Of a stretch of DNA of 64,000 nt, positions 1,829 to 61,836 are shown one piece after another. The position numbers and the translations under genes were made by a program. The notes under the pieces were generated by a model that was not told the DNA's origin, searched no databases, and saw only the letters and a list, made by a program, of their open reading frames with translations. The stretch covers positions 8,308,001 to 8,372,000 of the forward strand of contig JAGIQG010000006.1 in assembly GCA_024679065.1 (NCBI GenBank), written 5' to 3'. The stretch is from Sphyrna mokarran (lineage: Eukaryota). Position 1 is the stretch's first letter; every line of letters starts with the position of its first letter.

Positions 1829-1903
1829 TTATTTTTGAAAACTCTGTACATATTTGCTGGTGAACTCTTTATTTTGAACACTCTGTTTCTCTGAGTATCA
1901 TTA

Positions 1904-7250: not shown

Positions 7251-7254
7251 CACG

Positions 7255-9556: not shown

Positions 9557-9625
9557 CTTTCTCTTGTTGAGACCTTGTGAAGTTTATAACCGCGTAATCT
9601 AGATTATTTCCAGCTCCTTGCAAAT
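9557..9625 (-). CDS. Gene A cytoplasmic exon 3 (69 nt) with ITIM: (D)LQGAGNNLDYAVINFTRSQQEK
   Basis: Long polypyrimidine tract ...ttattcctttggtag| acceptor and |gtaagg donor; LDYAVI fits ITIM (S/I/V/L)xYxx(I/V/L). Confidence 0.88.
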
Positions 9626-12600: not shown

Positions 12601-15600
12601 TTTGTGAAAGTAGCTAGTCTGGAACATCCTTTTGGTGGAATTTCTCATGTCCCACCAGACATTTGCCTGTCCAAAGAGGCTCCATGTCAGGATCAAAGGC
12701 TGAGCTATTCGCCCTGAGCCCTCAGTGCCATCCAAACCTGGCACAGGAGTCTTCCCTTACCCACCTCCACTCCGTGGGCCACTTGCTCGGTAACATGGTG
12801 GTACAGGGGCATGGGTGGCACAACGGTTAGCACTGCTGCCTCACAGCGCCAGGGACCTGGGTTCAATTCCAGCCTCAGGTGATTTGTCTGCATAGGTTTC
12901 CTCCAACATTCCAAAGATGTGTGGGTTAGGTTGATTGGCCATGGTGAATTGCTCTTTGTGTTAGGGGGATTAGCAGGATAAATATTTGGGGGTATGGGGA
13001 AAGAGTCTGGACTGGGGCAGGTACAATGGACTGAATGGCCTCCTTGTGCACTGTGGAGGTTCTATGATTCAATGATGGACAGCAACACTACTAGGGTGGG
13101 TTCTATCTTGCAGAGGGGGGATTGGAGGGGATGGGGATGGGGTGGGTAAGGGTTGGTGCTTCGGACCTTGTTCTTTGGGTCAGATTTCATTTAACACACA
13201 CAGCAGACATTTCTGGCATTCATTCTCAGGGTATGGGTGAGGCTGGCAAGGTTGGCATTGACTGCCCATTCCTAGAAGGTGATGATTGAACTGTGGGCCT
13301 GCAGTTGAAGGAATTTGATGTGGGTTACATGAGAGAGATCAAAGTTTATTCTACATAACACCTCAATTGCAATTGAACTGCATCCTAGTACAGTAATCAT
13401 TAAAGTAAAGTTTATTTATTAGTGTCACAAGTTGACTTACATTAACACTGCAATGAAGTTATTGTGAAAATCCCCTAGTCGCCACACTCTAGTGCCTATT
13501 TGGGTACACTGAGTGAGAATTTAGCATGGCCAATGCACCTAACCAGTATGTCTTTGGACTGTGGGAGGAAACAGGAGCACCCAGAGGAAACCCACGCAGA
13601 CATGGGGAGAATGTGCAGACTCCACACAGACAGTGACCCAAGCTGGGAATTGAACCTGAATCCCTGGCACTGTGAGGTTGCAGTGCTAATCACTGTGCCA
13701 CTGTGCCACCCATTTGTGAGGGGAGAATTCTTACGTTTAAACTCATCGAAAGGCTAATGGAATGTTGAATTTACCTTAACCCAAGAAGTCTGAATTTCAA
13801 AGAAGTTTAGAGTTATGTAAAATTCAAGTTAACCACAGCTGGAGTAACTGGGTGGGATTTCACAGCCTTGCTCATCCCAAAACTGTAAAATCCTACCTGA
13901 GGTCAATGGCCGCCCCTCCAATGGCCTGCTCCAATTTTGATAGGGGAGGAGGTTAGGGGGAGATGGGCCGGGTGGTAAGATTTCAGTCACTCCGTTGAGT
14001 TCTGGGAACCCAGGAAGGATGTGTTGACCTTGGAAAGGGAGTACAGCAAAGATTCACCTGAATCATCTTACACATCCTTGTCAGAGCATGTGTTTGTATA
14101 GACTGGCTGTGATTAAGGGTTATCCAGATTTGAATCATTTCTATTCTCTCTCTGCAGATGCTGGCAGACCTGCTGAAATTTTTCGGCATTTCGCTTGTGC
14201 TGGTATAGCCTAGATTTGTGTTCCTTTGATAGAAGGTGAGTTGATGTGATTGAGATGGTTAAATGGTGGTTTGATATGAGAAAAAGAAACTATTTCCTCT
14301 AGACTGAGATGATTCTTATGGGAAGTGGGCAGGTAAGTGGAGCTGGGTCCACGAATAGATTTTATTGAATGGTGGAGCAGGCTCGAGGGAGGCCAAATGG
14401 CCTACTCCTGCTCCTAGTTCTTATGTTCTTATGTTGTTTATGATGACATATTGTGATATAATGTTTGAGATAACATTAAAGATCCTGTAGAAAGTTGTAA
14501 GATTAGCTTTTTTGTCAGTCACCCTTTTGCTAGTTCCAAATATTTTTCCCAAGCTACTGGGCTTCCTTTAATCTATGGAAACTAGACGATGCAACAAAAT
14601 TATCACCAATCCCTGACAGCAGTAGAATTTGTATTGTGAAGCTCACCTCTTTTCAACACCCAGATAACAAAACCAAATAGAAGAAAGGAGATAATGAACA
14701 GAGGGGGCACAATGTAATGGACGAGAGTGGACTTGTCCTTATCTTCATCAGGGAGGTGGATCTGACGGACATCTCTCCCGAGTTCATTTACAGCCAAACA
14801 GTTATACGTCCCTCTCAGTACTGGGTTACGAAACTCTCCTGTGATTTGATACTTGTCTGGCTCTTGTGTGACTGTTGTGTCAGGGCTGTTCCCGGGCACT
14901 GAGCTGCCCTCAGGATCGATCCATGTGATATTGGCAGGTGGCACCGCTTCAACCCGGCACACGATGCTCTCTCCAGTTACATTATCGCTCACTGTCGATA
15001 GATTCAAGATGGTGGCTGGGACTTGGGAAAGGAAAAGGACAATGAGGTTAATACCATTTATCGATCCTCACAGGAATATAGAACAGGGATTGGCCATTTA
15101 GCCTCTTCAGCCTGTTTAACCATTCAATAAGATGAGAAATGACCTGTGGCCTAGCTCCATTGAACTGTCTTTGTCCATATCCCTTATATGATAGGAAGAC
15201 AGGTTGTTACTTGAATGAGTGTAAATTGAGAAAGGTGGATACTCAGCGAGACCTTAGAGTCCTTGTGCATCAGTCACTGAAAATACCACTACATTACCAC
15301 TACACCAGAATCATCCCTTTGTCTCTTTGGACTCAACTATCTATTTCCAAACAGATGGAGGTTGGATTATAATATTCAGTGAGGAACCAGATCATCTTCT
15401 GCCATTTAGCTTTTAACAGTAAAGAAAACTATTAATCATGAAAAGTGTGACTAGAATATAACATTCCTTCATTCCCACTTATCTTCGTAAACGTTCAGCA
15501 TTTATAAGAATAACACTGATTACAGAAATATATTTTATGAGTATAAAGTTTAGTAAAGTATCACAGTCCCAATAAATCAAGGCTAAAATGTGATCAGACG

Positions 15601-18600
15601 CTCCCACACTTAAACCAAGGGTTTCGCTAATCTTGGCATGGATTGAATTAATCCGATTTTATCCATGGACGTTGACAGCCAAAGCAGCCAGGGAATGGAG
15701 GATAAAAGAGTCTCCTGAAGACTCACATGTTTCCCGCCGAGGAAATGACATCTCACCACAAGGTGGAAGATCCCCCACCTCTGCCCGTGTTGGTCACAGC
15801 AGCCAATCATTCAGTGTCTATTGACTCACTAGCTCTGTTTCCCCAAGATGTGGTCATTGGTACCAGGTTATTTTGTGTTTGTCTATAAAGGTTCACCTCC
15901 TATCTACAGCCCACTCGCTTGGAATTGACCTGATTTAACTTTTCACAGTGCAGAAGAGGGCATTCAGCCCTTAACAGCCACATGGACTTTTACCAGAATT
16001 AACGCAATACCCTCATATTTTACCCCTACCATTTTTGGGCGGCCAAAGGTTTCTTAAGTTCTGAATTTGATGGGAAAACTGTTGTAATTCAATGATTGAT
16101 TTTCACATTGCGAGTTTGACACTCGAATCTCCCACATTCTGTGCAAAGCAGCGTTCACAATCACGAATATCATTAAAAGTTTGGGGGGGTGGAGCCGATC
16201 CATGTAAAAGTCTGTCAGTTCTGGAACTCTGTGAAGGAGCAATGGCCCTGAGCTCTCAGCCTACAGTTTGCTGGCGGGCGATTGAGCTAACCAGCCTGGG
16301 GTCCTCACAGTGCTGCCCCTCCAGCCATCCGCCCACGGACTGATCGCGGACCCAACGAGAATTCATGGGCCAGCCTCGATCCTGTCATCATCCAAGAGTG
16401 CCGCAATCTCCACCCCCACCTACCCCCAGCAGTGACGATCCCTCTTTGGCAGATCCAGTCCCCTCGGGAGGCAGACCCCACTCAGCAGACATCCCACCTC
16501 CCAGGAGACCCCACTCCCAGCAGATTGCCCCACGGGAGGCAGACCCACCTGACAAAACACCCCTCTCCCCCTGGCTCGACCTGTTCACTGACCTCCCTCC
16601 AGCCCCAATCGATCACAACGCAGATTGGCAGTGGGATCCCCCCCATTCCCACCAATTGTCCCCTCGGCCCCACCCACTTGGCACAGCCCAGTAGGCCCTG
16701 CCCCTTGGCACTGCCGTGTGCCTGGTGGCAGTGTCAAGGTGTCCCCTGGGCATGGGCTCTTTGCCCCTTTGGCAGGTCCAGGTGACACAATCGGGAACTG
16801 TGATGATGCCCAAACCAGGGGGCAGCCCTCCCACCGTCCAACCCCCATGGGTCTCCAGCTACTTCCATGAAAGTGGGTGCTACTCTAAACCCCCCCGGAG
16901 TGAAGTTGTACTGGTGTTGGGAGTGGGGGGGAATGTTAGTGGGCTTGGAGAATTCAGTCCCAGGCCCCATTATCACATTTAATTAACATTAAAAATAGAT
17001 TTAAATCACTCACCTGCTGCTGCCTCTGGTTTCCATTGGGGTCCTGACTGCGCCAGATCTTCGGCGCTGGGTGATGTGTGTCTGTCAGGGACACACACGC
17101 AAATCCCGTGAATCGGTCACCAGTGATTCTCCCATCCCACCGGGCTAAAATTTAGGAAACTGGGGGGAAATTTAGCCTGGCCAATCCACCTAACCCATAA
17201 ATCTTTGGACTGTGGGAGGAAACCACACCAACACAGGAAGACCATCAAACTCCACAATGTATAAAATGATCAAAGCTGGAAATTGCCAGCACTGTGAGGC
17301 AGTAGTGCAAACCACTGTACCACCTGCTACAGAATGTTTTATCCACATCCCCATATCACAAACATTGATGTTTTCTTACCAACAACCTGGAGTCCCATCA
17401 CATCCTGAGTTACATTTTCCTGATTCCAGTTCCTGACGTGTACGTGACAGAAATAATCATTGGTGTCGTTCAGCTGCAGGTTCCTCATCCTGAGGGAAGC
17501 GTTTCCTTGGGTTGGGTTTCCAATCAGTTCATATCGATCTCCTTCATTCACAGTGACTGGGTCATTGTAGCCAGAACCAGCCCCCAGGGAATGAGAGTAA
17601 TTAAAAACAGTGGAAAATTTTTTTTGATCCCTCTTCATCCAGAGGACAGTGAGGGAGCTGAGAGAATGCTGAGGGGGATTGAAGGTGCAAGACAGAGTGA
17701 CAGAATCTCCCTTCACCCCAGTCACTGCCCGTGAATCGCTCTGACCTGAGGGAGTAAGGATTTGAAAGAACAGATATTAATTATCATGTAGTTTTATTAA
17801 ATGTAATCTCTACAATGTTTATCTCCCCTGTGATATCCCTAAAGACAGATAACACCGACCTAGATTTATACAAATACCTGGAAGTTAATGTTCCCTTCAG
17901 GAAATGAAGTTGGAAAAGTGCTGAGATCTTGGAGGGAAATTGCTCTGGAGGATGTGACGGCACTGAGATAGAAAAGGCCATGGAGGGATTTAAGGAGCAG
18001 GATGATGATGTTAAATAATGAGGAAATGGGTCTTGTTCCTCTGGAGAGGATTTCCTGCCGGGTCTGATGGACGATGTGATTGGTGGGATGAAAATGGATT
18101 GTGCTGGTGGCTTTTGGGACAGCATTGGGATAAAACCATGGATAAGTTATCTCAGCCTGCCCGTACTAGACAAAGACATACTCCCATTACTCTCAATATC
18201 TACAACTGTCCCCCTCATGGGATAGCATGGAGACACAGAGGTTAGCACTGCTGCCTCACAGTGTCAGGGATCTGGATTTGATTCCTGACTTGGGTTACTG
18301 TTTGTGTGGAGTTTGCACATTGTCTGTGTGGGTTTCCTCTGAGTGCTCCAAATTCTCCCACATTCTGGAAGATGTGCTGGTTAGGTGCATTGACCAGAAT
18401 AGGCTCCGGACTGTGGTGACTAGGGGAATTTCACAGTAACTTCATTTCAGTGTTAATGTAAGGCTTATTTGTGATTAATAAATGAACTTTAACTAAATTC
18501 ACAGCAGGCAGGACCCAGGCATTCACAAAGATGTAAATCTCAGTCTTGTACTTTCCCATTTCAAATCCATTTTACTCCAGAAAGCCAGTCTGTGAAGGAT

Positions 18601-21600: not shown

Positions 21601-24600
21601 GGGGCTGTTTAAGGGCCTCTTGGACAGCCACATGAGCAGTATGCAGATAGAGGGATATATTAGGACTGTTTAACTACGGCTTTTTTTCCACAGGTAATTC
21701 GGCCCATACTTGACCAACATTGAGCATGCATTCGGCAGGTGGTGCGGGTACAGCTCTTGGATGTTGATTCATGGGTTGCCTGGTACCTCATGTCGTAAAT
21801 GCGTGCTTTATGTGGACCATCTGAAGGGCACCATGACAGCTCAGAGACTATCGATGTGGCTGTGCAGACACTTGGAATTGGGCCGGTGTCTGCGGGAGTT
21901 TGCGCGTTCTCCCCGTGGTTGCGTGGGTTTCTCCGGGCACTCCGGTTTCCTCCCACAACCCAAAAATTCGCTCTTAGGCTGATTGGGTAACAAATTGTCC
22001 CTATAGTGAGAATTTTCCATATTAGGAATAATATATATATTATTATATAGGAATAATAAAATAGGATAATGGATTTGCTACTATATAGTTATGACGGCGG
22101 CGCGGGCTCGTTGGGCCGAAGGGCCTGTTTCCCGTGCTGTGTTGCTCTTTAAAAAAAAAAAGATGTCCCATAAATTTCCTGGGATGGACGATAAGAATAT
22201 AGAACATAGAACATAGAACATTACAGCCCAGAACAGGCCCTTCGGCCTTCGATGTTGCGCCGACCAATTATGAACAAAAAAGCAATGACCCTCCAAACTA
22301 AATCATTCCCTTCTCTTCCATAAACTTATCAACTAACCTCTTAAACGCCACCAAACTTGGCGCATCTACAACTGCCGCAGGCAAGGCATTCCACTCCCTA
22401 ACCACCCTCTGGGTAAAGAGTCTACCTCTGATATAACTATCAGCATTGCTCACAAACCAAGAGTAAACTCTTTATCATCAAAACCCGACAGCACAAAAGG
22501 AGGGCATTCAGCCCATCGAGTCTGCACTGACCACAATCCCATCTGTCCCTGTAACCCCACACATTTACTCCACTAATCCCTCTAATTTACACATCCCGGG
22601 ACACTAAGACACAATTTAACATGGCCAATGCACCTCTGTAGCACATCTTTAAAACATTTGTGCTTGTGTTTGGATTAAATTTACATACAGTCTTATATCG
22701 AATTTGAAATATTCCTCACCTCTCATTATGAGATCTCCATGCTCCAATTGATAAGCTGCTCCGTTACCATCGAGCTCCATGCGACAGAAATATTTATGTC
22801 TTGTGTCCTCTTTATTCAGCTGTTTGATGATGATTGAAGCTTCGTTCTTCCTCGGGTTTCCCAGCGCTTGGTAACGATTATTAATATTCAGGATGACCAG
22901 ATTCTGAAACTGTCTGCCCGGTGCGTTTTGTGTTGGATAATTTGTATAATTAAATACCGCTTCCTTTCCTCTGAACCATTTAACCGTGATGTTGCCATTA
23001 TATCCCGAGTGAGGGTGAGTGAACTTGCAGAACAGAACAGTAGCTTTTCCTTCCCTACCCGTCACCTTCTCCGGTGTCTCCATGCTCCAGCCATTGTTAC
23101 TGAGAACTGGAAAACACAAAATGCTGTTTAAACACCGAACTGAGATGGGAGCTGTTACGGGACTCTGTCGGAAGCTTTCTTGTTCTACTCCCCTCAACTA
23201 ACCAAACAAAGTGACGGAGTGATTTGAAGATGAACTTTACAATAGCTATCGGCCCCTGAATATCCATTCAGAGTAAAGAATTCAGAGATATAAAGGCAAT
23301 TAAAATCTCAGCTATGATTACAAATAATTAACATACACCAATAACAGAATATGAGTTATCTCCATCCAATCACAGTTAATACTTCATGTAACATCATATA
23401 AAATGTAATATTTAAAACCAATCACAATCATCTTACACTTGCTTAATTATAATATCCAACAGTGGTGAGCTTTTTACTGCCTGATTTGAGTATTATTCTC
23501 CCCTATCTTTACACACTTAGACTGTGTCTACACACTCCAACATCGGTCCTTGTCCAGTGCATGATGTAAAAGACTTCTCCCAGCACAGTATCTTTCTCCC
23601 TTCTTTACCTGAAGGTCAAACTAGTTTCTTGTAATAACCACCTTGTAATTACACATTGTGTAAGCTTTGTGATTTGTCCATGTTAATCCTTTCACTGAAC
23701 ACAGTTATTCATGTGCTGATTATTTTCCTCCATAATTATTAATATGGGTATTGATCCGCCTCAAGAGGCAATGGTTCCAACCCTTCAGGATTGGCCAAGA
23801 GTCTCCAGCCTAAGAAATTATGTACTTGCCACAGAGGAACATAGAACATAGAACATAGAACATAGAACATTACAGCACAGTACAGGCCTTTCGGCCCTCG
23901 ATGTTGCGCCGGCCAGTGGACCCTCTAACCTAAACTATTCCAGTATCATCCATATGCCTATCCACCGAACATTTGAATGCCCCCAAAGTAGGTGAGTCCA
24001 CAACTGCTGCAGGCAGGGCATTCCACGCCCTCACCACCCTCTGTGTAAAGGACCTGCCTCTGACATCCGTCCTATAACTACCACCTCTTAATTTAAAGTT
24101 ATGTCTCCTCGTGTTGGTCATCACCATCCGAGGAAGAAGGCTCTCACTATCCACCCTATCCAGTCAGTGAAGTGCAGTGAAGGTTCACCAGACCGATTCC
24201 TGGGCAGGCAGGATTGATGTATGAGGAGAGATTGGGGGGACAATTCACTGGAGTTTAGAAGAATGAGAGAGAATCTAACTGAAATTTTTAAATTCTAATT
24301 GAGCTGGACAGACTGGATGAGGGATAATCTTTGCCCTAGCTGGTGTCTGGAACAAAGGGTCACATTCTCAGGATGTAGGGCAGGCCATTTGTTTTATTCA
24401 TTCATGGGAAATGGCTTTCAATGGAATAACATTTCAGAGGAATGTTAGGAGTCCCATCAGTATGGATCTGGAGTCACATGTAGGTCAGGCTCGGGTAATG
24501 AGGTCAGATTTCCTTCCCTAAAGGACATGAGTGAATCCAATGGGTTTGTTTATGACAACCAACATGGTCATCGTTAGAGATTTAAATCCAGATTTTTATT

Positions 24601-27494
24601 GAAAAGGGTGAAACTTGTAAATGTTGATGTTCAGGGGACTTGGGAGTGCTCAGGATGGGAACACAGAAAGTTAGTATACAGGTCCACCAGCAATTAGGAA
24701 GGAAACTGACATGTTAGTCTTTACTGTAAGAGGATTGGGGTAGCAGAATAACAAAGTCTTGCAACAATGGGTGGGATTGCATCTAGAATATTTACAATTG
24801 TATTTTCCATATTTAGGAAGGATAAACTTATATAGGAGGCAGTAGCGTGAATGTTCACTAAATTTTTCCCTGGGTTGAGATTGTTGTGCTGTGGTATATA
24901 GAACATAGAGACTGAATAAACCAGCTCACTATTCTCTGGAGTTTTAAAGAGTAACAGGTTACCTCATCAATTGCTAGAAGATTGTGAAAGACGTTGAAAG
25001 GGTGAACGCTGAGAGATTGTTTCCCCTGACTGGGGGATTATTGTCTCACAGCGCCAGCAACCAAGGTTCAATTCTGGCCTCGGGTCACTGTCTGTGTGGA
25101 AGCTGTATGTTCTTCCCATGTCAGTGTGGATTTCCTCTGGGTGCTCCGGTTTTCTCCCACAATCCAAAGATGTGCAGGTTAGGTTGATTGGCCATAATAA
25201 ATTGCCTCTTAGTGTCAGGGAAAAAATACAGGATAAATGAAGGTTACGGAGATAGAACCTGAGTGGGATTGTGGTCAGTACAGACTTGATGGGCTGAATG
25301 GTCTCCTTCGGTACGTACGGATTCTATGATTCAACAAGGATAAAGGGCTGACTATTTTGGACAGAGATGAGGAGAAATTTGTTCGCTAAAGTGTCGTGAT
25401 TCTATGGGAATCTTTATGCCAGAGGGTTATAACTGCTCCTGAGCTGAATAAAGTTAACTCTTGGATAGATAGATTTTTGGTCCCTCGGGGATTAAGAAGA
25501 TTATTTCTTTTATTTATTATGTCACAAGCAGGCTTACATTAACACAACAATGAAGTAACTGAATTACTGTGAAAATCCCTAATCGCCACACTCCGGCGCA
25601 TTTTTGGGCACAATGAGGGAGAATTTAGCTAATGCACCTAATTAGCACATCTTCTACACTGAGGGACAATTTAGCATGGCTAATGCACCTAGCCAGCACG
25701 TCTTCAGACTGTGGGAGGAAACCGGAGCACCACAGACACAGGGAAAGTGTGCAGACTGTGCACATACAGTGACCCAAGCTGGGAATCAAACCCAGGTTGT
25801 TGGTGCTGTGAGGCAGCAGTGCTAACCACTGTGCCATCATATTACCCCATGGAAGTGTGTACTGCAGTCTAACTAGAGTGTGAAACAGTTTGTAATGTCA
25901 CTACCTGATAAGAAATAAGCCGGGGAAAGCCATTCAGCCCTTCAAGCCTGCTCCACCATTCATTAAGATCATGGCTGATCTGATTGTGCTCTTAACTTCA
26001 TTTTCCTGCCTGTTCCCACACCTTTGACTTGTAGGTTAAAAATCTGAATAAGCCTTGGCTACATTCAATGATTCAGCATCCACTGCTGTCTGGGGAGGTG
26101 AATTCTACAAACAAATGACCCTCGGAGAGAAGAAGTTCCTGCGCATCTCCATCTTAAACTGGAGACCCTTATTCTGAAACTCTGGCCCCTCATTCAAGAT
26201 GTGGGAAAAAACTTCCTCTCAGCATCTATAAGTCAGGCTCACACAGATTCTAATATGTTTCAAGAAGATCATCTTTCAATCTTCTAAACCCCAAAGTTAT
26301 CGACACAATCTGTTCGACCTTTCCCCAAAAGACCAACTGCTGAACCCCAGAATCAGCCCAGTGAATCTTTCTGGCACTTTCTTTGCGTCTGGAGTCACAT
26401 GTAGGCCAGGCTGGGTAAGGATGGCAGATTTCCTTCTCTAAAGGATATGAGTGAATCAGATGGGTTTTTACGTTAATTGATCTAGTCATCACTTGAGTTT
26501 TATTTCCAGATTTTTATTTAAAAAGGGTGCAACTTGTAAATGTTGATGTTCATGGACTTGGGGGTGCTCACATTGGGAACACAGAAAGTTAGTGTAAGAC
26601 CCACAAGCATTTCCTTTATTCATCAGAGACCAAAGTCTCTGACAGTGCGAGGGTAACTTCTCTCTTTCCATACTCTATATATCGACTAATAACACGAAAG
26701 TTTCCCATATACCTTCGCAATGATCTTATACCCCGGGCGATCTGATTTATCCTCTCATTGTAGTATCTTATGTTTGAGGGTTTTCATTTACTGCATTGTA
26801 AAATGTTCTTATTTGCAAAGGAAGCTAAAGCAAATACACAAATCTAACAACACTCATCCTTAACAATTCTTCTGACAGAACAGCCCCTGATCCAACATCA
26901 GTATAAAATTCAGCACAATATACAGTAAGATATTTAGTGTGAAAGCATTATATTCAGTGTCATATTGAGTATAATATTCAGCAATTGTCCATGTGTATTC
27001 TATATAATATTCAGAATACAATTCAATATACATTCAGGAACTGTAAAGTCATAATCGGCCACATGACCAGAGGCTGCTCTACCCTTTGAGTGGGAGAGCA
27101 GCCTGGTGATGATTTAACCTGAGGATCATTACATCTCAGCTGAGGGGCAAGGTTGAGAAGGCAGCGCCTTCATGAATAACCCCCGCGGGTACAGGAATTG
27201 AACCCACACTGTTGGCATAACTCACCAGATGGCCATCCAACTGAGCTGAACCAACCCACAGTAGCTTTGTTGGTATAATATTCCATATAATATGAAGTTT
27301 TATATTCAGCATAATATTCCATATAACACTGACAAGTCACTGTCCCTTCTCACTTGCGGTGAGCCAGTTTTTTTTGACACTCTAAATTATTTTACTGAAA
27401 TAGTATAGCAGAGGGAAAATGAGTTCATTCTTTAAAAATACATACATTTTGCTGAGCTGGTCAGTGTGAGTGTACACAGCACGATCCACAGCAT
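9557..27494 (-). CDS. Gene A: Siglec-15-like inhibitory Ig receptor (leader-V1-V2-C2/TM-tail x3), multi-exon, 3' end likely incomplete
   Basis: Exons 27494-27446, 23106-22720, 17745-17380, 15021-14647, 12117-12049, 10907-10839, 9625-9557 all have AG/GT boundaries, all phase 1, and join into one open frame of ~461 aa. Confidence 0.88.
10839..10907 (-). CDS. Gene A cytoplasmic exon 2 (69 nt): (D)PQGVGEIPVYSAIGPASQQAET, YxxI motif
   Basis: tttctgtatctttgacag| acceptor, |gtatag donor, phase 1-1; paralogous to 12049-12117. Confidence 0.78.
11190..11540 (+). mobile_element. Old SINE of a second family with a LINE-derived tail (related fragments at ~24450-24600, 26385-26520 and their duplicates)
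   Basis: aaaacccatctggtt...gaaggaaatctg...ctggtctacatgtgactccaga core recurs in the window; tail caagggcaactagggatgggcaacaaatgc shared with LINE 3' ends at ~10390-10420 and ~27740-27790. Confidence 0.65.
11722..11990 (-). mobile_element. HE1/V-SINE-type SINE
   Basis: ggactgtgggaa...gaggaaacccacgcagaca core and CR1-like 3' tail (atagaat)n. Confidence 0.82.
12049..12117 (-). CDS. Gene A cytoplasmic exon 1 (69 nt): (D)PRGVGGIPVNSAVNPASQQAET, Tyr replaced by Asn
   Basis: tttccatatctttgacag| acceptor, |gtatag donor, phase 1-1. Confidence 0.78.
12815..13072 (+). mobile_element. HE1/V-SINE-type SINE
   Basis: tRNA-like head gtggcacaacggttagcactgctgcctcacagcgccagggacctgggttcaattcc; tail ttctatgattc. 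Confidence 0.82.
13405..13708 (-). mobile_element. HE1/V-SINE-type SINE with alternative 3' tail
   Basis: tRNA head at 13650-13705, V core, tail ...gtgacactaataaataaacttt; same type at ~18230-18490 (+) and ~25505-25840 (-) and their duplicates. Confidence 0.82.
14647..15021 (-). CDS. Gene A C2-set Ig plus transmembrane exon (uncharged TM YIVPPLFIISFLLFGFVIWVL, then KR)
   Basis: IVC...ITW...GTYNC Ig motifs; acceptor ttttcctttcccaag| (alternative cag| at 15015), donor |gtgagc; 375 nt. Confidence 0.92.
16215..17165. repeat. GC-rich interspersed element in the V2-C2 intron, unclassified (copies at ~39965-40915 and 63615-64000)
   Basis: C-rich, low-complexity sequence producing spurious Pro/Gly ORFs; present in all three gene copies. 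Confidence 0.5.
17380..17745 (-). CDS. Gene A second V-set Ig exon (V2; YFCHVH, no essential Arg)
   Basis: VTLSCTF...VLW...GNASLRMRNLQLNDTNDYFC; tccttactccctcag| and |gtaaga; 366 nt. Confidence 0.92.
20114..22160 (+). mobile_element. CR1 LINE insertion specific to unit 1 (intron V1-V2 of gene A), with V-SINE core in its 3' UTR
   Basis: RT ORFs 20135-20674, 20640-21089, 21068-21673; empty site caggaagatgtccc at 43860-43873 in unit 2; short aaga target duplication and A-tract 3' end. Confidence 0.94.
22720..23106 (-). CDS. Gene A N-terminal V-set Ig exon (V1), Siglec-15-like, essential Arg in YFCRME
   Basis: WSM..P..V, VLFCKFTHPH..YNG, LGNPRKN, YFCRME, Y...HG match motifs recalled from the Siglec-15 V domain; tttgtgttttccag| and |gtgagg; 387 nt. 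Confidence 0.92.
23838..24163 (-). mobile_element. CR1 3' fragment (duplicate at ~45538-45850)
   Basis: TRRHNFKLRGGSYRTDVRGRSFTQRVV; (ATAGAAC)n tail is longer in unit 1. Confidence 0.88.
25045..25332 (+). mobile_element. HE1/V-SINE-type SINE (duplicate ~46732-47020)
   Basis: ctcacagcgcc...ggttcaattc head, V core, attctatgattc tail. Confidence 0.8.
27060..27260 (-). mobile_element. tRNA-derived SINE of a third family (related copy ~31235-31420; duplicates in unit 2)
   Basis: Minus-strand head agctcagttgg...ggttcaattcc (A/B boxes); core gatttaacctgagg..cacctcag..gagggg shared between copies. Confidence 0.7.
27446..27494 (-). CDS. Gene A signal-peptide exon MLWIVLCTLTLTSSAK
   Basis: ATG with purine at -3, hydrophobic core, 49 nt, |gtatgt donor, phase 1 in frame with V1. 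Confidence 0.88.
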
Positions 27495-36824: not shown

Positions 36825-37199
36825 CTACCGTCAACATCCAGATACTAAAACAAATTATAAAATATAAGATCAGTAAAAGAACCCGCACAACATAGGAAAC
36901 AAAAATGGACATGTCCTTGTCTTCAGCGATGAGGTGGATCTGACGGACGTCTCTCCCGAGTTCAGTTACAGCTACACAGCTGTATGTCCCTCTCAGTAGT
37001 GGGTTACGAAACTCTCCTGTGATTTGATACTTGTCTGGCTCTTGTGTGACTGTTGTGTCAGGGCTGTTCCCGGGCACTGAGCTGCCCACAGGATTGATCC
37101 ATGTGATATTGGCAGGTGGCCCCGCTTTAACCTGGCACACGATGCTCTCTCCAATTATTTTATTGGTCACTAACGACAGATTCAAGATGGTGGCTGGGA
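36825..37199 (-). CDS. Gene B C2-set plus TM exon (SYVVRVLLLILYFIICFSIWMLTV)
   Basis: Within ORF 36784-37440; donor |gtaagt; Arg codon CGG at 36883-36885. Confidence 0.92.
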
Positions 37200-40100
37200 C
37201 TTGGGGAAGGAAAGGGACAATGAGGTTAACACCGATCCATTGATCCTTACTAGAATATAGGAACAGGGATTGGCTATGTAACCCCTTCAGCCTGTTTAAC
37301 CATGCGGTGAGATCAGAATTGATCTGTGACCAAGTTCCATTGAACTGCCTGTAGAAATGTTTCTGAACTTCAATCCTGAAAAGTCTGGCTCTGATGTTTA
37401 GGCTTCTGACTCCTGCCCTGACTTTCAAAACCAGTGTCATAGAGGTTTACAGCATGGAAATAGGCCCTTCAGCCCAATTTGTCGATGCAGCCTTTTTTTA
37501 AACCTCTAAGCTAATCCAAGTTGTCCACATTTGGCCTATATCCCTCTATACCCATCATATTCATATAACTATCTAAATGGTTTTTAAAAGACAAAATTGT
37601 ACCTGCCTCTATTACTATCTCTGGCAGCTTGTCCCAGACATTCATCATCATCTGTGTTTAAAAAGAAAATGCCCCTCTGGACACTCTTCTATCTTTCCTT
37701 GTTCACCTTAAACTTATGCTCTCTAGTTTTAGACTCCCCTGCCTTTGGGAAAAGACTATCTCGCTGATCTGTGCCCCTCATTATTTTATACATAATGACA
37801 GTGGCAATAATTTCTCCCATTCTACATTTAAAATTTCTTGTAACAATTTGAAACCTTTGATCAAATCACCTATTAACCTTTTATATTCCAGCAAATGTAA
37901 CCCTAGTGTCTGTTGTGATCTTTCCTTGTAAAGAACACTTGGATTCAGATATCAGTCTGCAAAATCTACACTCCCTCCAAGGCCAATATATCTTTTCTAC
38001 TCTGCGCTGCTCCTGAGCTGTTCAGATTCTATCCAGATGTGATCCAAGCTGAGCTTTGTATAGTTCAATCATAACCCCCTTGTAGACTTGTCCTCTGGAT
38101 ATAAAGGCCAGCATTTCATTCACCTGTATTTGATCATTTTCTGTTCATATCTATGATATTTTAATGAGCACATTGGACATGTTCTGAGCAATTTTCTGCC
38201 CTGGGTCTAAGGAAGGACCTACTGGCCCTGGGGAGGATTCAGAGAATCCATCACGCAAACCAGCCTCCCATCCATTGACTCTGTCTACACTTCCCACTGC
38301 CTTGGCAAAGCAGTCGGAATAATGAAGGACCCTGGATATTCTCTCTTCCACCTTTGGAAAAAGAAACAAAAGTCCGAGGTCCCGTACCAACAGACTCAAG
38401 GACAGCTTCTTCCCTGCTGCTGTCAAACTTTTGAGTAAACTTACCTTGCGTTAGGTTGATCTTTCTCTACAACCTCACTATGACTGTGACTCTACATTCT
38501 ACACTCTCTCATTTCCTTCTCTATGAAGAGTATGTTTTGTCATATTGCACACAAGAAGCAATACTTTTCACTGTATGTTAAAGCATGTGACAATAATAAA
38601 TCAGATCAAAAGGAGGTTCACAAGAATGATCCCAGGAATGAAAAGCTTGAGGAGTGTCTGAGAACTCTGGGTCAGTACTGGATGGAGTTTACAAGGAGAA
38701 GGGGAGATCTCATCGAAACTTACAGAATACTGAAAGGACTGGATGAAGTGAACATGGGGAAGGTTAGATATATTGATGACTACAAGCACCGGACTGTGGC
38801 AACAAGGGAATTTCACTTCATTGCAGTGTTAATGTAAGCCTTACCTGTGAGTAATAAATAAACATGAAAGATATTTCCATTAACAGGAGAGACTAGGATC
38901 CGAAGGCACAGCCTCAGAGTAAAGGGACAATCCTTTGGAAAGAAGATGAGGAGGAATTTCTTCAGTCAGTGGGTGGTGAATCTCTGGAATTCATTACCAC
39001 AGAAAGCTGTGAAGGCCAGTTCATTATACTTCAGACAGTGATAGACAGGTTGTGGATTGGTCACGGGATGAAAGGTTACAGGAAAAAGGTGGGAAAACGG
39101 GGTTGAGAAACTGATGAGACATGATTGAATTGCAGAGCAAACCCGATGGGCTGAATGGCCTAATTCTGCTCCTATATATTATGCTCTTATGGACCTGTAT
39201 AACTGGATCTCCTCGGGTCTTTGGACTGTCACTGTTTCTAGATTAATGAATGATTATTACAATTCCATGGTGCTGAGATTCATTACAAGGCTCTCAGAGA
39301 GAAAGTAGTGGAGAGAGAGGTGACACCTAACAGAAGGAGATTGGATTATAGTATTCATAAAGGAACCAGATCAACCCCTGGATTTGTTGTTAATCTGGAA
39401 AGAGGATTGAATTAATCGGAGTTTATCCATGGATCTTGACAAAAGCGCAACCCAGGGAATGGAGGATGAAAGAGTCTCCTGAACACTCACTGTTCCCGAC
39501 AGGAAATGACACTCACCACAAGGTGGAAATCCACCTCTGGCCGTGTTGGTCACAGCCAATCATTCAGTGTCTATTGACTCACTCAGCGCTGTTTCCAGAT
39601 GTGGTCATTGGGACCAGGTTATTTGTGTAGAAATAATAAAGGTTCACCTCCATCTCAGCCCCTCACTGGGAATTGACCTGGTGTTAACTTTTCACAGTGC
39701 AGAAGAGGGCATTCAGCCCATTAAAGCCACATGGACTTTTACCCAGACTTAACGCATAACCCTCATATTTATCCCTACACATGTTTGGGCACCAAAAGAT
39801 TCTAAGTGCTGAATTTGTGGGAAAACTGTTGTAATTCACGATTGTTTTTCCAGTGGGAGTTGACACTCGAATCTCCCACACTCTGTGCAATGCAGTGTCC
39901 ACTATTAAGAATATCATTAAAAGTTTTGGGGGGGAGGGGTGGAGCCGATCCATGTAAAAGTCTGTCAGTTCTGGAACTCTGTGAAGGAGCAATGGCCCTG
40001 AGCTCTCAGCCTACAGTTTGCTGGCTGGCGATTGAGCTAACCAGCCTGGGGTCCTCACAGTGCTGCCCCTCCAGCCATCCGCCCACGGACTGATCGCGGA

Positions 40101-43100
40101 TCCAACGAGAATTCATGGGCCAGCCTCGATCCTGTCATCATCCAAGAGTGCCGCAATCTCCACCCCCACCTACCCCCCGCAGTGACGATCCCTCTTTGGC
40201 AGATCCAGTCCCCTCGGGAGGCAGACCCCACTCAGCAGACATCCCACCTCCCAGGAGACCCCACTCCCAGCAGATTGCCCCACGGGAGGCAGACCCACCT
40301 GACAAAACACCCCTCTCCCCCTGGCTCGACCTGTTCACTGACCTCCCTCCAGCCCCAATCGATCACAACGCAGATTGGCAGTGGGATCCCCCCCATTCCC
40401 ACCAATTGTCCCCTCGGCCCCACCCACTTGGCACAGCCCAGTAGGCCCTGCCCCTTGGCACTGCCGTGTGCCTGGTGGCAGTGTCAAGGTGTCCCCTGGG
40501 CATGGGCTCTTTGCCCCTTTGGCAGGTCCAGGTGACACAATCTGGAACTGTGATGATGCCCAAACCAGGGGGCAGCCCACTCACCATCCGACCCCCATGG
40601 GTCTCCAGCTACTTCCCTGAAAGTGGGTGCTACTCTAAACCCCCCTGGAGTGAAGTTGTACTGGTGATGGGAGTGGGGGGGAATGTTAGTGGGCTTGGAG
40701 AATTCAGTCCCAGGCCCCATTATCACATTTAATTAACATTAAAAATAGATTTAAATCACTCACCTGCTGCTGCCACTGGTTTCCAGTGGGGTCCTGACTG
40801 CGCCAGATCTTTGGCGCTGGGTGATGTGTGTCTGTCGGGGACACACACGCAAATCCCGTGAATCGGTCACCAGCGATTCTCCCATCCCACTGGGCTAAAA
40901 AATTAGGAAACTGGGGGGAAATTTAGCCTGGCCAATCCACCTAACCCATAAATCTTTGGACCGTGGGAGGAAACCACACCAACACAGGAAGACCATCAAA
41001 CTCCACAATGTATAAAATGATCCAAGCTGGAAATTGCCGGCACTGTGAGGCAGTAGTGCAAACCACTGTACCACCTGCTACAGAATGTTTTATCCACATC
41101 CCCATATCACAAACATTGATGTTTTCTTACCAACAACCTGGAGTCCCATCACATCCTGAGTTACATTTTCCTGATTCCTGTTCCTGACGTGTACGTGACA
41201 GAAATAATCATCGGTGTCTTTCAGCTGCAGGTTCCTCATCCTGAGGGAAGCGTTTCCTTGGGTTGGGTTTCCAATCAGTTCATATCGATCTCCTTCATTC
41301 ACAGTGACTGGGTCATTGTAGCCAGAACCAGCCCCCAGGGAACGAGTGTAACTAAAAACAGTGGAAAATTTTTTTTGATGCCTCTTCATCCAGAGGACAG
41401 TGAGGGAGCTGAGAGAATGCTGAGGGGGATTGAAGGTGCAAGACAGAGTGACAGAATCTCCCTTCACCCCAGTCACTGCCCGTGAATCATTCTGACCTGA
41501 GGGAAGGAGGATTTGAAAGAACAGACATTAATTATCATGTAGTTTTATTAAATGTAATCTCTACAATGTTTATCTCCCCTGCGATATCCCTGAAGACAGA
41601 TAACAGCGACCTAGATTTATACAAATACCTGGAAGTTAATGTTCCCTTAAGGAAATGAAGTTGGAAAAGTGCTGAGATCTTGGAGGGAAATTGCTTTGGA
41701 GGATGTGACAGCACTGAGATAGAAAAGGCCATGGAGGGATTTAAGGAGCAGGATGATGATGTTAAATAATGAGGAAATGGATCTTGTTCCTTTGGAGAGG
41801 ATTTCCTGCCGGGTCTGATGGACGATGTGATTGGTGGGATGAAAATGGATTGTGCTGGTGGGTTTTGGGACAGCATTGGGATAAAACCATGGATAAGTTA
41901 TCTCAGCCTGCCCGTACTAGACAAAGACATACTCCCATTACTCTCAATATCTACAACTGTCCCCCTCATGGGATAGCATGGAGACACAGAGGTTAGCACT
42001 GCTGCCTCACAGTGTCAGGGATCTGGATTTGATTCCTGACTTGGGTTACTGTTTGTGTGGAGTTTGCACATTGTCTGTGTGGGTTTCCTCTGAGTGCTCC
42101 GAACTCTCCCACATTCTGGAAGATGTGCTGGTTAGGTGCATTGACCTGAATAGGCTCCGTATTGTGGTGACTAGGGGAATTTCACAGTAACTTCATTTCA
42201 GTGTTAATGTAAGGCTTATTTGTGATTAATAAATGAACTTTAACTAAATTCACAGCAGGCAGGACCCAGGCATTCACAAAGATGTAAATCTCAGTCTTGT
42301 ACTTTCCCATTTCAAATCCATTTTACTCCAGAAAGCCAGTCTGTGAAGGATGATCCTCAACCTCTTCTTAGTCTTATATTTAATTACCGAGTGAATAATT
42401 ACAAACAAATATCTCCAAACACAATTGCACAGTTATAGAAATGTGTTTTGAAGATGTTCAGAAAAAACCTCTCCTTGCAGATCATTAAACACAACTCATA
42501 TCCAAATAGCAAATTAAATCCTCTTTAAATCTCTCTGGTGTGTGGGCTAGGTCGGTTAGCCATGTTAAATTGTCCCTTAGTGTCTTAATCCAGTGGTGGG
42601 TTGGGGGCTTGTAACAAAGTCCAAAAAGCAAACACTTCCCATTTGGCTCATGGGCTTCCCTGGGGATCCCTTCCATGGACATCTCTTCCATGGGGGTCCC
42701 ACTCAGCACTGGATTGTGGGAACTGGGAAGCCTGCTGAGAGTTACCCCTTGTGTTTGTTGCTGACCTGCCGTCCCCACACCTTCTCTCCTGGGACTCCCC
42801 GTCCCGCAATCACTCACCTGTGCCTGGCTCCATTGGTTAACGTGGTATTTGAGTGGGTGTAGTAGCAGCAGCAACCACATCCCCCTCAGTGGCACCACTG
42901 AGCCATGAAGAGTATCTGCCCTCTGATTGGGACCTCACCCAGGGACTTGGTCTCAGGAAAGGCCCAGTGCTGCCCTGCTGAGTGCCTGATTACACTGAAT
43001 GGTACAAGCCTTCCTAAATTAGGTGGTACTCGTTCTCCAGTCAGCGGGTGAAATCACCATCATGTTAAATTCCACCTAATAATTACCTGTTCTGGGTTTA

Positions 43101-46100
43101 AGATTAATCACTTATTTAACAAACGCATAACTCCTATTTGTACAATCCATCACCAGTATCTACAAATGCCTCTACATGAGCTCAAATTATTATCCAATGT
43201 GTGCTTCCCCCCTTGTATCTCATTAACTTTTGTGATAACCCCTGCGAGGTCCATGGGAAAGCATTGATTGACCTCTCTGTAGGACTCATTGAGTATGAGT
43301 TCCCTGGTAACAGGCAGTTCCTGTCTATTCCTGAGGCTTGTATAAGGCAGGCCTTGGACTGGGCCTGCTGATCTGCAGTCCCTGGCAGGCCCTAGTAGTT
43401 TGGAGATGCCTGATTGGGGCTTCATTACACTCTGGATTTGCTGTATCTGCTGCTGCCAGACTGAGAGCTGAGAGTTACTGGAGAGGGAAGCTGCTGCTTG
43501 GAGAGAGAGAGAGAGAGAGGCCCCAGGGCCTGGAGGCTCACAGGCCTCACAGCCTGCAATGGAGAGAGGGAAACTGGGCAGGGCCTGAAAACTGCTCTGA
43601 GTGCAATGGGAGAATCCCAGCTCAGGATCAATATTAAATCAGTTTTACATTTCTACACAATGTGAAACATGACAAGTCCAAATCCCTCCCTCTGAAATCC
43701 GCACACCAGATGTGTCAATGTGAGCCACTCAGTTATGTCCTCACTTTTACAGGAAAACCAGAGCTGAATAATAAATCTAGTTTGATATCTAGTTTGCCCG
43801 GTACCACCCTGGTTTAAGGGCAATCCATTCCGCAGTGGCCCAGTGAATCATCAGTGATTCAGGAAGATGTCCCATAAATTTCCTGGGACGGACAATAAGA
43901 ACACAGAACATAGAACATTACAGCGCAGAACAGGCCCTTCGGCCTTCGATGTTGCGCCGACCAATTATGAAAAAAAATGCAATGACCCTCCAAACTAAAC
44001 CATTCCCTTCTCTTCCATAAACTTATCAACTAACCTCTTAAACGCCACCAAACTTGGCGCATCTACAACTGCCGCAAGCAGGGCATTCCACTCCCTAACC
44101 ACCCTCTGGGTAAAGAATCTACCTCTCATATAACTATCAGCATTGCTCACAAACCAAGAGTAAACTCTTTATCATCAAAACCCTACAGCACAAAAGGAGG
44201 GCATTCAGCCCATCGAGTCTGCACTGACCACAATCCCATCTGTCCCTGTAACCCCACACATTTACTCCACTAATCCCTCTAATTTACACATCCCGGGACA
44301 CTAAGACACAATTTAACATGGCCAATGCACCTCTGTAGCACATCTTTAAAACATTTGTGCTTGTGTTTGGATTAAATTTACATACAGTCTTATATCGAAT
44401 TTGAAATATTCTTCACCTCTCATTATGAGATCTCCATGCTCCAATTGATAAGCTGCTCCTTTTTTACCATCGAGCTCCATGCGACAGAAATATTTATTTC
44501 TTGTGTCCTCTTTATCCAGCTGTTTGATGATGATTGAAGCTTCGTTCTTCCTCGGGTTTCCCAGCGCTTGGTAACGATTATTAATATTCAGGATGACCAG
44601 ATTCTTAAACTGTCTGCCCGGTGCGTTTTGTGTTGGATAATTTGTATAATTAAATATCGCTTCCTTTCCTCTGAACCATTTAACCGTGATGTTGCCATTA
44701 TATCCCGAGTGAGGGTGAGTGAACTTGCAGAACAGAACAGTAGCTTTTCCTTCCCTACCCGTCACCTTCTCCGGTGTCTCCATGCTCCAGCCATTGTTAC
44801 TGAGAACTGGAAAACACAAAATGCTGTTTAAACACCTAACTGAGATGGGAGCTGTTACGGGACTCTGACGGAAGCTTTCTTGTTCTATTCCCCTCAAGTA
44901 ACCAAACAAAGTGACGGAGTGATTTGAAGATGAACTTTACAATAGCTATCGGCCCCTGAATATCCATTCAGAGTAAAGAATTCAGAGATATAAAGGCAAT
45001 TAAAATCTCAGCTATGATTACAAATAATTAACATACACCAATAACAGAATATGAGTTATCTCCATCCAATCACAGTTAATAGTTCATGTAACATCATATA
45101 AAATGTAATATTTAAAACCAATCACAATCACCTTACACTTGCTTAATTATAATATCCAATAGCGGTGAGCTTTTTACTGCCTGATTTGAGTATTATTCTC
45201 CCCTATCTTTACACACTTAGACTGTGTCTACACACTCCAACACCGGTCCTTGTCCAGTGCATGATGTAAAAGACTTCTCCCAGCACAGTATCTTTCTCCC
45301 TTCTTTACCTGAAGGTCAAACTAGTTTCTTGTAATAACCACCTTGTAATTACACATTGTGTAAGCTTTGTGATTTGTCCATGTTAATCCTTTCACTGAAC
45401 ACAGTTATTCATGTGCCGATTATTTTCCTCCATAATTATTAATATGGGTATTGATCCGCCTCAAGAGGCAATGGTTCCAACCCTTCAGGATTGGCCAAGA
45501 GTCTCCAGCCTAAGAAATTATGTACTTGCCACAGAGGAACATAGAACATAGAACATTACAGCACAGTACAGGCCTTTCGGCCCTCGATGTTGCGCCGGCC
45601 AGTGGACCCTCTAACCTAAACTATTCCAGTATCATCCATATGCCTATCCACCGAACATTTGAATGCCCCCAAAGTAGGCGAGTCCACAACTGCTGCAGGC
45701 AGGGCATTCCACGCCCTCACCACCCTCTGTGTAAAGGACCTGCCTCTGACATCCGTCCTATAACTACCACCTCTTAATTTAAAGTTATGTCTCCTCGTGT
45801 TGGTCATCACCATCCGAGGAAGAAGGCTCTCACTATCCACCCTATCCAGTCAGTGAAGTGCAGTGAAGGTTCACCAGACCGATTCCTGGGCAGGCAGGAT
45901 TGATGTATGAGGAGAGATTGGGGGGACAATTCACTGGAGTTTAGAAGAATGAGAGAGAATCTAACTGAAATTTTTAAATTCTAATTGAGCTGGACAGACT
46001 GGATGAGGGATAATCTTTGCCCTAGCTGGTGTCTGGAACAAAGGGTCACATTCTCAGGATGTAGGGCAGGCCATTTGTTTTATTCATTCATGGGAAATGG

Positions 46101-49100: not shown

Positions 49101-49182
49101 GGGAAAATGAGTTCATTCTTTAAAAATACATACATTTTGCTGAGCTGGTCAGTGTGAGTGTACACAGCACGATCCACAGCAT
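36825..49182 (-). CDS. Gene B: Siglec-15-like activating-type Ig receptor (leader-V1-V2-C2/TM with TM Arg, short tail)
   Basis: Exons 49182-49134, 44806-44417, 41496-41131, 37199-36825, all AG/GT, phase 1, one open frame; no copy of the 69-nt tail exons seen downstream; last exon uncertain (read-through stop at 36784). Confidence 0.87.
41131..41496 (-). CDS. Gene B V2 exon
   Basis: 366 nt, 9 nt different from gene A V2, same splice sites. Confidence 0.92.
44417..44806 (-). CDS. Gene B V1 exon (YFCRME retained)
   Basis: 390 nt, one codon longer than A (DGKKG vs DGNG); ccag| and |gtgaag. Confidence 0.92.
49134..49182 (-). CDS. Gene B signal-peptide exon MLWIVLCTLTLTSSAK
   Basis: Identical to gene A leader exon; |gtatgt donor. 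Confidence 0.88.
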
Positions 49183-61462: not shown

Positions 61463-61836
61463 CTACCGTCAACATCCAGATGCTAAAACAAATTATAAAA
61501 TATAAGATCAGTAAAAGAACCTGCACAATGTAGGAAACAATAGTGGACATGTCCTTGTCTTCAGCGATGAGGTGGATCTGACGGATGTCTCTCCCGAGTT
61601 CAGTTACAGCCACACAGCTGTATGTCCCTCTCAGTATTGGGTTACGAAACTCTCTGTGATTTGATACTTGTCCGGCTCTTGTGTGACTGTTGTGTCAGGG
61701 CTGTTCCCAGGCACTGAGCTGCCCACAGGATCGATCCACGTGATATTGGCAGGTGGCACTGCTTTTACCTGGCACACGATGCTCTCTCCAGTTACATCAT
61801 CGCTCACTGTCGACAGATTCAAGATGGTGGCTGGGA
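61463..61836 (-). pseudogene. Gene C C2/TM exon, frameshifted (rest of gene beyond window end)
   Basis: 374 nt vs 375 in A and B; actctc(c)tgtg 1-nt deletion at ~61654 splits ORFs 61631-61822 and 61422-61613; TM Arg replaced by Gln (CAG at 61521-61523). Confidence 0.75.

Follow-up and report, generated by a model that had tools for sequence, protein, structure and literature searches.

Human Siglec-15 is built of one V-set and one C2 domain. According to PMC7226832, Siglec15 carries a lysine in the transmembrane (TM) segment and an essential arginine in the V-set domain. In the closest described paired systems, conversion has repeatedly affected the ligand-binding region: SIGLEC11/16 is one documented pair (PMC5701461), and SIGLEC5/14 combines repeated conversion with a fusion allele (PMC4042635). 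In both primate pairs, an ITIM-tailed and a charged-TM gene lie side by side and their V domains are kept alike by repeated conversion, the boundaries of which show no motif (PMC5701461, PMC4042635).

The locus analysed here, a window of 64,000 bases from the shark Sphyrna mokarran, is most likely a paired-receptor cluster under concerted evolution, and it shares with the primate pairs the adjacent position of a gene with a (here predicted) ITIM tail and a charged-TM gene, with V domains kept alike. It differs from them in belonging to a Siglec-15-like family with V-V-C2 architecture, in the presence of several short-tailed copies and in the TM charge, which is either an arginine (genes B and E) or absent (C and D), in contrast to the lysine known from Siglec-15. 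As paired receptors, the partners would be co-expressed, share a ligand and signal in opposite directions. A first-pass annotation of the window had distinguished three genes and explained the middle one, B, by a single unequal crossover near 39908 between an inhibitory gene (A) and its activating neighbour (C), in analogy with SIGLEC5/14. The analogy is a fair one for the homogenised ectodomains. The SIGLEC14/5 fusion allele likewise joins the 5' part of one paralog to the 3' part of another (PMC4042635), but it is a deletion with one junction that yields an inhibitory protein, whereas in the shark gene B no single junction can be placed and the ancestry flips many times.

Gene content and architecture of the cluster

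The window corresponds to positions 8308001-8372000 of contig JAGIQG010000006.1 (assembly size 2.77 Gb), and the search for further copies extended it by 100 kb to the left and 200 kb to the right. The window and its flanks contained six related V-V-C2-TM Siglec-15-like copies, not three: A, B and C were followed to the right by a 100-N gap at window-equivalent position 75893 (12 kb to the right of the window) and then by A2, D and E, with A2 consisting of V exons only. In each of the minus-strand genes A, B and C, the leader exon is accompanied by two V-set exons and by one exon that fuses C2 with the transmembrane segment, which makes one V domain more than in human Siglec-15. The left flank harbours gene F, which is inverted and has a TM lysine, and gene G with one V. 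The coding features of the three genes are as follows.

14647..15021, minus strand: gene A, C2 + transmembrane exon, hydrophobic core without charged residue
17380..17745, minus strand: gene A, V2 exon
22720..23106, minus strand: gene A, V1 exon (YFCRM)
27446..27494, minus strand: gene A, leader exon
12049..12117, minus strand: gene A, predicted cytoplasmic exon 1 (69 nt)
10839..10907, minus strand: gene A, predicted cytoplasmic exon 2 (PVYSAI)
9557..9625, minus strand: gene A, predicted cytoplasmic exon 3 (LDYAVI)
left of the window: gene A, two further predicted tail exons with ITIM consensus (SVYSNV, VIYATV)
36825..37199, minus strand: gene B, C2 + transmembrane exon, Arg located N-terminally within the TM (YVVRVLLL)
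41131..41496, minus strand: gene B, V2 exon, V-set with His at the Siglec Arg position
44417..44806, minus strand: gene B, V1 exon, Siglec-15-like V-set with YFCRM, closer to C and D than to A
49134..49182, minus strand: gene B, leader exon, equal to that of A over the 60 bases compared
61463..61836, minus strand: gene C, C2 + transmembrane exon, with Gln at the site of the B and E Arg and, in this assembly, a frameshift of 1 base near 61650

The best match of V1 was the solved human Siglec-15 7zoz (E 1.2e-18); the motifs YFCRM of A, B and D and YSCRM of C aligned with YFCRV of 7zoz, whose aligned arginine we take to be R143. The named homologs all came from cartilaginous fish, and most of those from sharks and rays bear the NCBI label Siglec-15. 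Copies A-E are paralogs of F: V1 is 94-96% identical among A, B, C and D and only 52% between A and F. The TM lysine that serves Siglec-15 for DAP10/12 is present in F and absent from A-E. In human, SIGLEC15 is neighboured by the SLC14A urea-transporter genes, while in the shark assembly 10 of 10 urea-transporter matches, the only synteny marker checked, were on another contig than the cluster.

Several minor features accompany these genes. The tail exons of A at window 12002-12138 and 10792-10928 represent a tandem exon duplication with 86-89% identity, and the first has an Asn at the position of the Tyr in the second. Reverse-transcriptase-like frames typical of LINE elements occupy window positions 138-1868, 7019-8640 and 20113-22160, the last being an insertion in the V1-V2 intron private to A/A2. 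Gene E (window-equivalent 126.7-134.4 kb) has lost its V1 exon via a ~4.2-kb deletion and has a mutated leader splice donor, with the TM Arg kept. Gene G (contig 8.270-8.281 Mb) is a more distant V-C2-TM Siglec-like gene on the plus strand converging on A, with the V Arg present and an uncharged TM.

Predicted inhibitory and short-tailed classes

Gene A has an uncharged TM and, with splicing predicted, five putative tail exons, two of them with the ITIM consensus; four of the five had counterparts in the tails of proteins from Heptranchias or Heterodontus. Its earlier designation as the inhibitory gene agrees with this predicted tyrosine-motif tail, including SVYSNV and VIYATV. The TM sequences of B-E are 3-6 nt from each other and 35-37 of 106 nt from A, with Arg in B and E and Gln in C and D. 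No copies of the tail exons of A were found near B-E in 364 kb, nor was a terminal exon of B found when searched for. The TM Arg of B and its lack of A-type tail exons speak for the first-pass account. The C2-TM of B scored best against non-Lys paralogs of other sharks, and for this reason the short-tailed B-E class likely derives from the inhibitory gene.

The description of C as the activating neighbour was not supported: the Arg position of B and E is occupied by Gln in C, and its C2 is frameshifted by one base in this assembly; in addition, Ser replaces Phe beside its V1 cysteine. The label "activating" would apply, as a prediction, through the Arg of B and E only, both of which would signal via an adaptor binding this residue. 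Database proteins with a B-type TM or with an A-E-type V1 above 58% identity were searched for and none was found, a weak negative result.

The switch at 39908

The motifs quoted in favour of a crossover are present in the sequence: on the left, B carries gtgcaatgcagtgtccactattaag as does C and in difference from A, and to the right of the switch aatatc and catgtaaaag are equal to A and differ from C, with a variable G-run following. The surrounding features are listed below.

39881..39908, no strand: 28-bp island, B = C = E, with 7 sites different from A/A2 and 6 from D
39909..40540, no strand: recently homogenised tract common to A, A2, B and E, its left edge being the reported switch and its right edge approximate
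39926..39940, no strand: G-run, long form (+6 bases) common to B and E, resembling one genomic copy of a repeat family
39391..39404 in B (= A 15628), no strand: point in the V2-C2 intron at which class-specific 3' sequence gives way to sequence shared with A

The max-chi analysis of the A/B/C triplet placed a peak at 39908-39912, with a value of 29.6 using A and 22.2 using A2, neither reached in 1000 permutations, which treat sites as independent, so that clustered changes inflate the significance. The claimed change of B from C-like to A-like is, accordingly, significant as a triplet signal, but the two-arm pattern was gone once six copies were compared. To the left of 39908, 31 sites had B=C against 7 with B=A; with A2 in place of A the proportion was 18 to 9, with 7 of the 18 belonging to the 28-bp island, and with the island subtracted it came to 11 against 9. 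The A2/B/E triplet gave no max-chi peak at 39908. Furthermore, a switch of equal strength (chi 21.3) was located at 47830-47880, another significant one at 45163-45223, and the informative sites swapped partner many times along B. These additional switches, together with the identity of E and B across the reported one, argue against a crossover at 39908.

The island differs at 7 of 28 positions between A2 and B and at none of 28 between B and E. It sits inside a dispersed repeat, and the copies of this repeat family, used as outgroup, showed mixed polarity. The A-type version is backed by an exact 103-base contig of sequencing run X1. In the adjoining tract (39909-40470) A2, B and E are only 3-5 bases apart (A2-B 4/556, B-E 3/562), and C and D are 5-7% away (B-C 41/541, B-D 28/529); from 40471 to 41100 the distances return to ~3% (A2-B 18/629, B-D 15/630). 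The stretch 39909..40540 is likely a gene-conversion tract, judging by this local drop in divergence. B and E are identical for 379 bases across the switch (39799-40178) but ~3% apart on either side, which makes at least two conversions necessary; overlapping short tracts would account for this, one between A and B ending at 39909 and one between B and E running past it. The class boundary at B 39391, ~500 bases to the left of 39908, is at the same place in B, D and E, and this stretch is absent from C.

Probable uncorrected sequence in gene A and possible haplotype duplication

The left arm of the switch depends on a part of A with an unusual composition of differences.

15587..16115, no strand: indel-rich patch in A, probable uncorrected long-read sequence

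Between 15693 and 16120, A differs from B by 24 substitutions and has extra bases in 22 events (a single base in 19 of them) and missing bases in 6, while A2 over the matching stretch has 13 substitutions and 0 indels against B. For comparison, the old A-B divergence around C2 comprises 91 substitutions and 4 indel events in 581 columns. The patch contained 18 and 9 indel events per 500 bases, compared to no more than 4 elsewhere. Per-bin counts of private substitutions of A, which the indel placement by MAFFT inflates, were left out. Insertion-rich error is typical of uncorrected long reads.

An independent check was provided by short Logan contigs of run X1, which may be another individual (runs X3 and X4, matching at ~90%, were left out). 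The X1 contigs matched A exactly at 14409-14782, 14953-15237 and 16116-16215. In contrast, at 15587-16108 the whole contig depth carried 17 of the 18 listed substitutions, leaving the letters of A unsupported, and all 12 gap rows shown (of 30) were at full depth, each corresponding to an extra base in the assembly. A 76-base X1 contig at A 16071-16142 (depth 8.4) had fewer differences than a B-type sequence would give, which suggests that up to three more A-private letters are real there; the island would then widen to ~70 bases. A 16002-16059 is covered by no X1 contig. The left arm looks weaker than claimed because much of the A divergence falls into the patch unsupported by X1; this divergence is likely for the larger part an error patch, and the sharpness of the switch was likely inflated by read errors in A. 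As a caution, a view of three copies combined with a likely assembly error patch gave a convincing, but probably wrong, crossover point.

A and A2 are identical over 14,234 bases from 16115 onward, and the regions upstream of C and D are identical over 6,365 bases up to the gap, whereas the genes between them differ by several per cent. The copies beyond the gap may belong to a second haplotype, with A-B-C and A-D-E placed in tandem, which would explain the unpolished end of A; if there are two haplotypes, B may be a copy-number variant. Heterotype and homotype false duplications are known in long-read assemblies, with almost identical blocks placed about a gap within a single scaffold and with errors from the reads, and these features recur here (PMC9516828). 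The likeness covers A2/D/E versus A/B/C and not A versus B. The X1 contig depth was 11-15 for A-only sequence, 19.9 for the island of A and A2, 44 for the shared intron and 59 for V2; these values fall between the expectations for one and two copies, contig depth not being equal to copy number.

Mosaic ancestry of gene B

Judged by its distances to the other copies, B is chimeric at coarse scale and its 5' backbone shares ancestry with the ITIM-tailed A. In 300-base windows from 35835 to 40034, D or E was nearest to B in 13 of 14 (C was unaligned in five); the nearest copy was mixed up to 41.5 kb, and from 41535 A alone was nearest in 24 of 30 windows, with three having only A aligned. Over 39909-50270, B differs from A by 180 and from C by 308 of 9762 bases (1.84% vs 3.16%), so that the statement that the 5' half of B is nearer to A than to C, with a leader equal to that of A, stands. 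Two insertions have a corresponding distribution, and three insertions common to C and D are lacking in B.

43899..44130, no strand: retroelement-like insertion common to A and B; C has the empty site, D is unaligned
45540..45855, no strand: second retroelement-like insertion common to A and B; C again has the empty site, D is unaligned

The remaining parts of the original account were not supported. Against C as the donor of the 3' half are the nearest-copy windows, with D or E ahead, and the intron of B, which differs from C at 69/835 positions in comparison with 15/838 from D and 21/847 from E; two large intron blocks are, moreover, missing in C. The V domains were said to come from A, but V1 of B is closest to C (2 nt) and D (3 nt) and further from A (5 nt and, in addition, an indel of 3 nt), and for V2 the distance is 9-12 nt whichever copy is compared (A 9, C 12, D 10, E 11). 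The V exons of C beyond the window had been proposed as a check, and the V1 found there is nearer to B than that of A, a result which the first-pass annotation itself had regarded as contradicting its model. Finally, the V1 domains of C and D are already 94-95% identical to that of A, and no new ligand match was therefore created by the formation of B.

Local ancestry changes many times along B, within V2 and across V1 as well. The duplicated unit is visible in self-alignment, with an uneven divergence of 0-7.7% per 500 bases. Gene F, tried as an intron outgroup, aligned essentially only in exons and repeats; with no intron outgroup found and the sharing between A and B being symmetric, the direction of exchange is unreadable from this assembly.

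Origin of gene B

The reading which we hold to be probable is that 39908 marks the left edge of a ~0.6-kb conversion tract common to A, B and E, one of many and sharpened by assembly errors, and not the crossover that founded B. Gene B is a mosaic with a 3' half of the short-tailed class, nearest to D and E, and a 5' backbone nearest to A. Such a mosaic would result from recurrent non-allelic recombination, with at least one long unequal exchange, somewhere within 39.4-42.0 kb, joining a 5' backbone of the A lineage to a short-tail 3' end, followed by many short conversions; through this recombination, the single ITIM-tailed gene and the several genes without a tail would retain similar ectodomains. 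Several points weigh against this reading: the triplet peak at 39908 is significant even with A2, some of the A-private letters at 16071-16142 may be real, X1 consists of contigs only and may stem from another individual, the terminal exon of B was not found, and D, E and A2, lying beyond the gap and maybe on a second haplotype, are perhaps not independent copies. A crossover between the island and 39926 in the common B-E ancestor, overprinted later, is possible. The original proposal, a single unequal crossover of A and C at 39908-39926 that duplicated 23.7 kb and left B with the 5' part of A and the 3' part of C, appears highly unlikely. It draws on the significant triplet switch, the lower divergence of the 5' half from A, the leader and two insertions common to A and B, and the duplicated unit; it conflicts with the affinity of the 3' half to D/E and the two intron blocks missing in C, with a V1 nearer to C/D, with the identity of E across the switch, with a left-arm signal coming largely from the error patch, with the uneven divergence along the unit and with a putative donor C that has a TM Gln and already matches the V1 of A. 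For V1 and for C as the donor this model is largely refuted.

Gene A might instead be the recombinant, an old ITIM gene that took over a B-type 5' half by one long exchange ending at A 15628 / B 39391. The sharp boundary common to B, D and E would agree with this, as would an A-specific X1 contig crossing from A-unique into shared sequence (15253-15715), and the derived insertions common to A and B are compatible with either direction; we nevertheless regard it as unlikely, given that the direction has no intron outgroup to lean on when F aligns essentially only in exons and repeats, and that the mixed ancestry at 39.9-41.5 kb would still require later conversions. That the switch, or gene B itself, is an artefact of two joined haplotypes has a small probability. 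Such an origin would be consistent with the error patch in A, the 100-N gap 12 kb to the right of the window, the long identities of A with A2 and of C-upstream with D-upstream, and the pattern of false duplications described in PMC9516828, but A, B and C are on one gap-free stretch, ~2-3% apart and with distinct TM exons, the arrangement of island, G-run and tract recurs independently in E, beyond the gap, and X1 contains the exact A-type island together with a contig having about the B-type number of differences.

Paralogs in other cartilaginous fish

The cross-species comparison was based on automated gene models. For the domain trees C was excluded, as were, domain by domain, the rows with less than 35-40% identity or 70% of the length, and the class labels were taken from TM and tail. 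The V2 and C2 domains of Lys-TM and non-Lys paralogs grouped by species in S. mokarran and in the same way in four other genera, so that conversion seems to be the usual state of this family. The identities between the two classes in V2 and C2, respectively, were 88 and 94% in Sphyrna mokarran, 95 and 94% in Heptranchias, 85 and 99% in Heterodontus, 83 and 91% in Pristis, and 93 and 90% in Callorhinchus. V1, in contrast, was not homogenised in the two testable elasmobranchs (52% in S. mokarran and 51% in Pristis), but it was in Callorhinchus (89%). The V1 Arg was present in 2 of 13 Lys-TM sequences, nine of the others having Leu, F having His and one Trp, and in 10 of 11 non-Lys rows, which include two isoforms from a single gene.

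Tentatively, cartilaginous fish may own a paired-Siglec system formed from Siglec-15-like genes, in which the sialic-acid Arg is mostly lost from the conserved Lys-TM gene, whose exchange with an Arg-keeping ITIM paralog is limited to V2 and C2; this shark may have evolved a second activating class (the Arg-TM, tail-less B and E) from the TM exon of the ITIM gene, with its V1 kept matched to the inhibitory gene by ongoing conversion, and B may be carried by some haplotypes only. To judge from the cluster, paired Siglec receptors seem to have arisen independently in cartilaginous fish and to be maintained there by the conversion process known from primates. Where Lys-TM and ITIM paralogs convert each other, V1 is spared, the opposite of what primates show, and this contrast could serve to test directly whether shark homologs of Siglec-15 are able to bind sialic acid. 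No literature on siglec gene conversion in elasmobranchs was found by a search with most subscription journals outside its coverage, and a prior description is possible.

Among skates, Rhinoraja gene models include paralogs whose non-Lys TM carries an Arg at its beginning and which lack an evident ITIM tail; for these, a parallel origin of the Arg-TM class is possible. Gene F (contig 8.213-8.227 Mb) is 18-20 of 366 nt from the cluster in V2 and 8 of 268 nt from A in C2, and shows no likeness to the cluster in V1, TM and introns. The same contig also carries two near-identical Siglec-like V exons, 0.85 Mb apart and in opposite orientation, one with Arg and the other with Cys after the F-strand cysteine.
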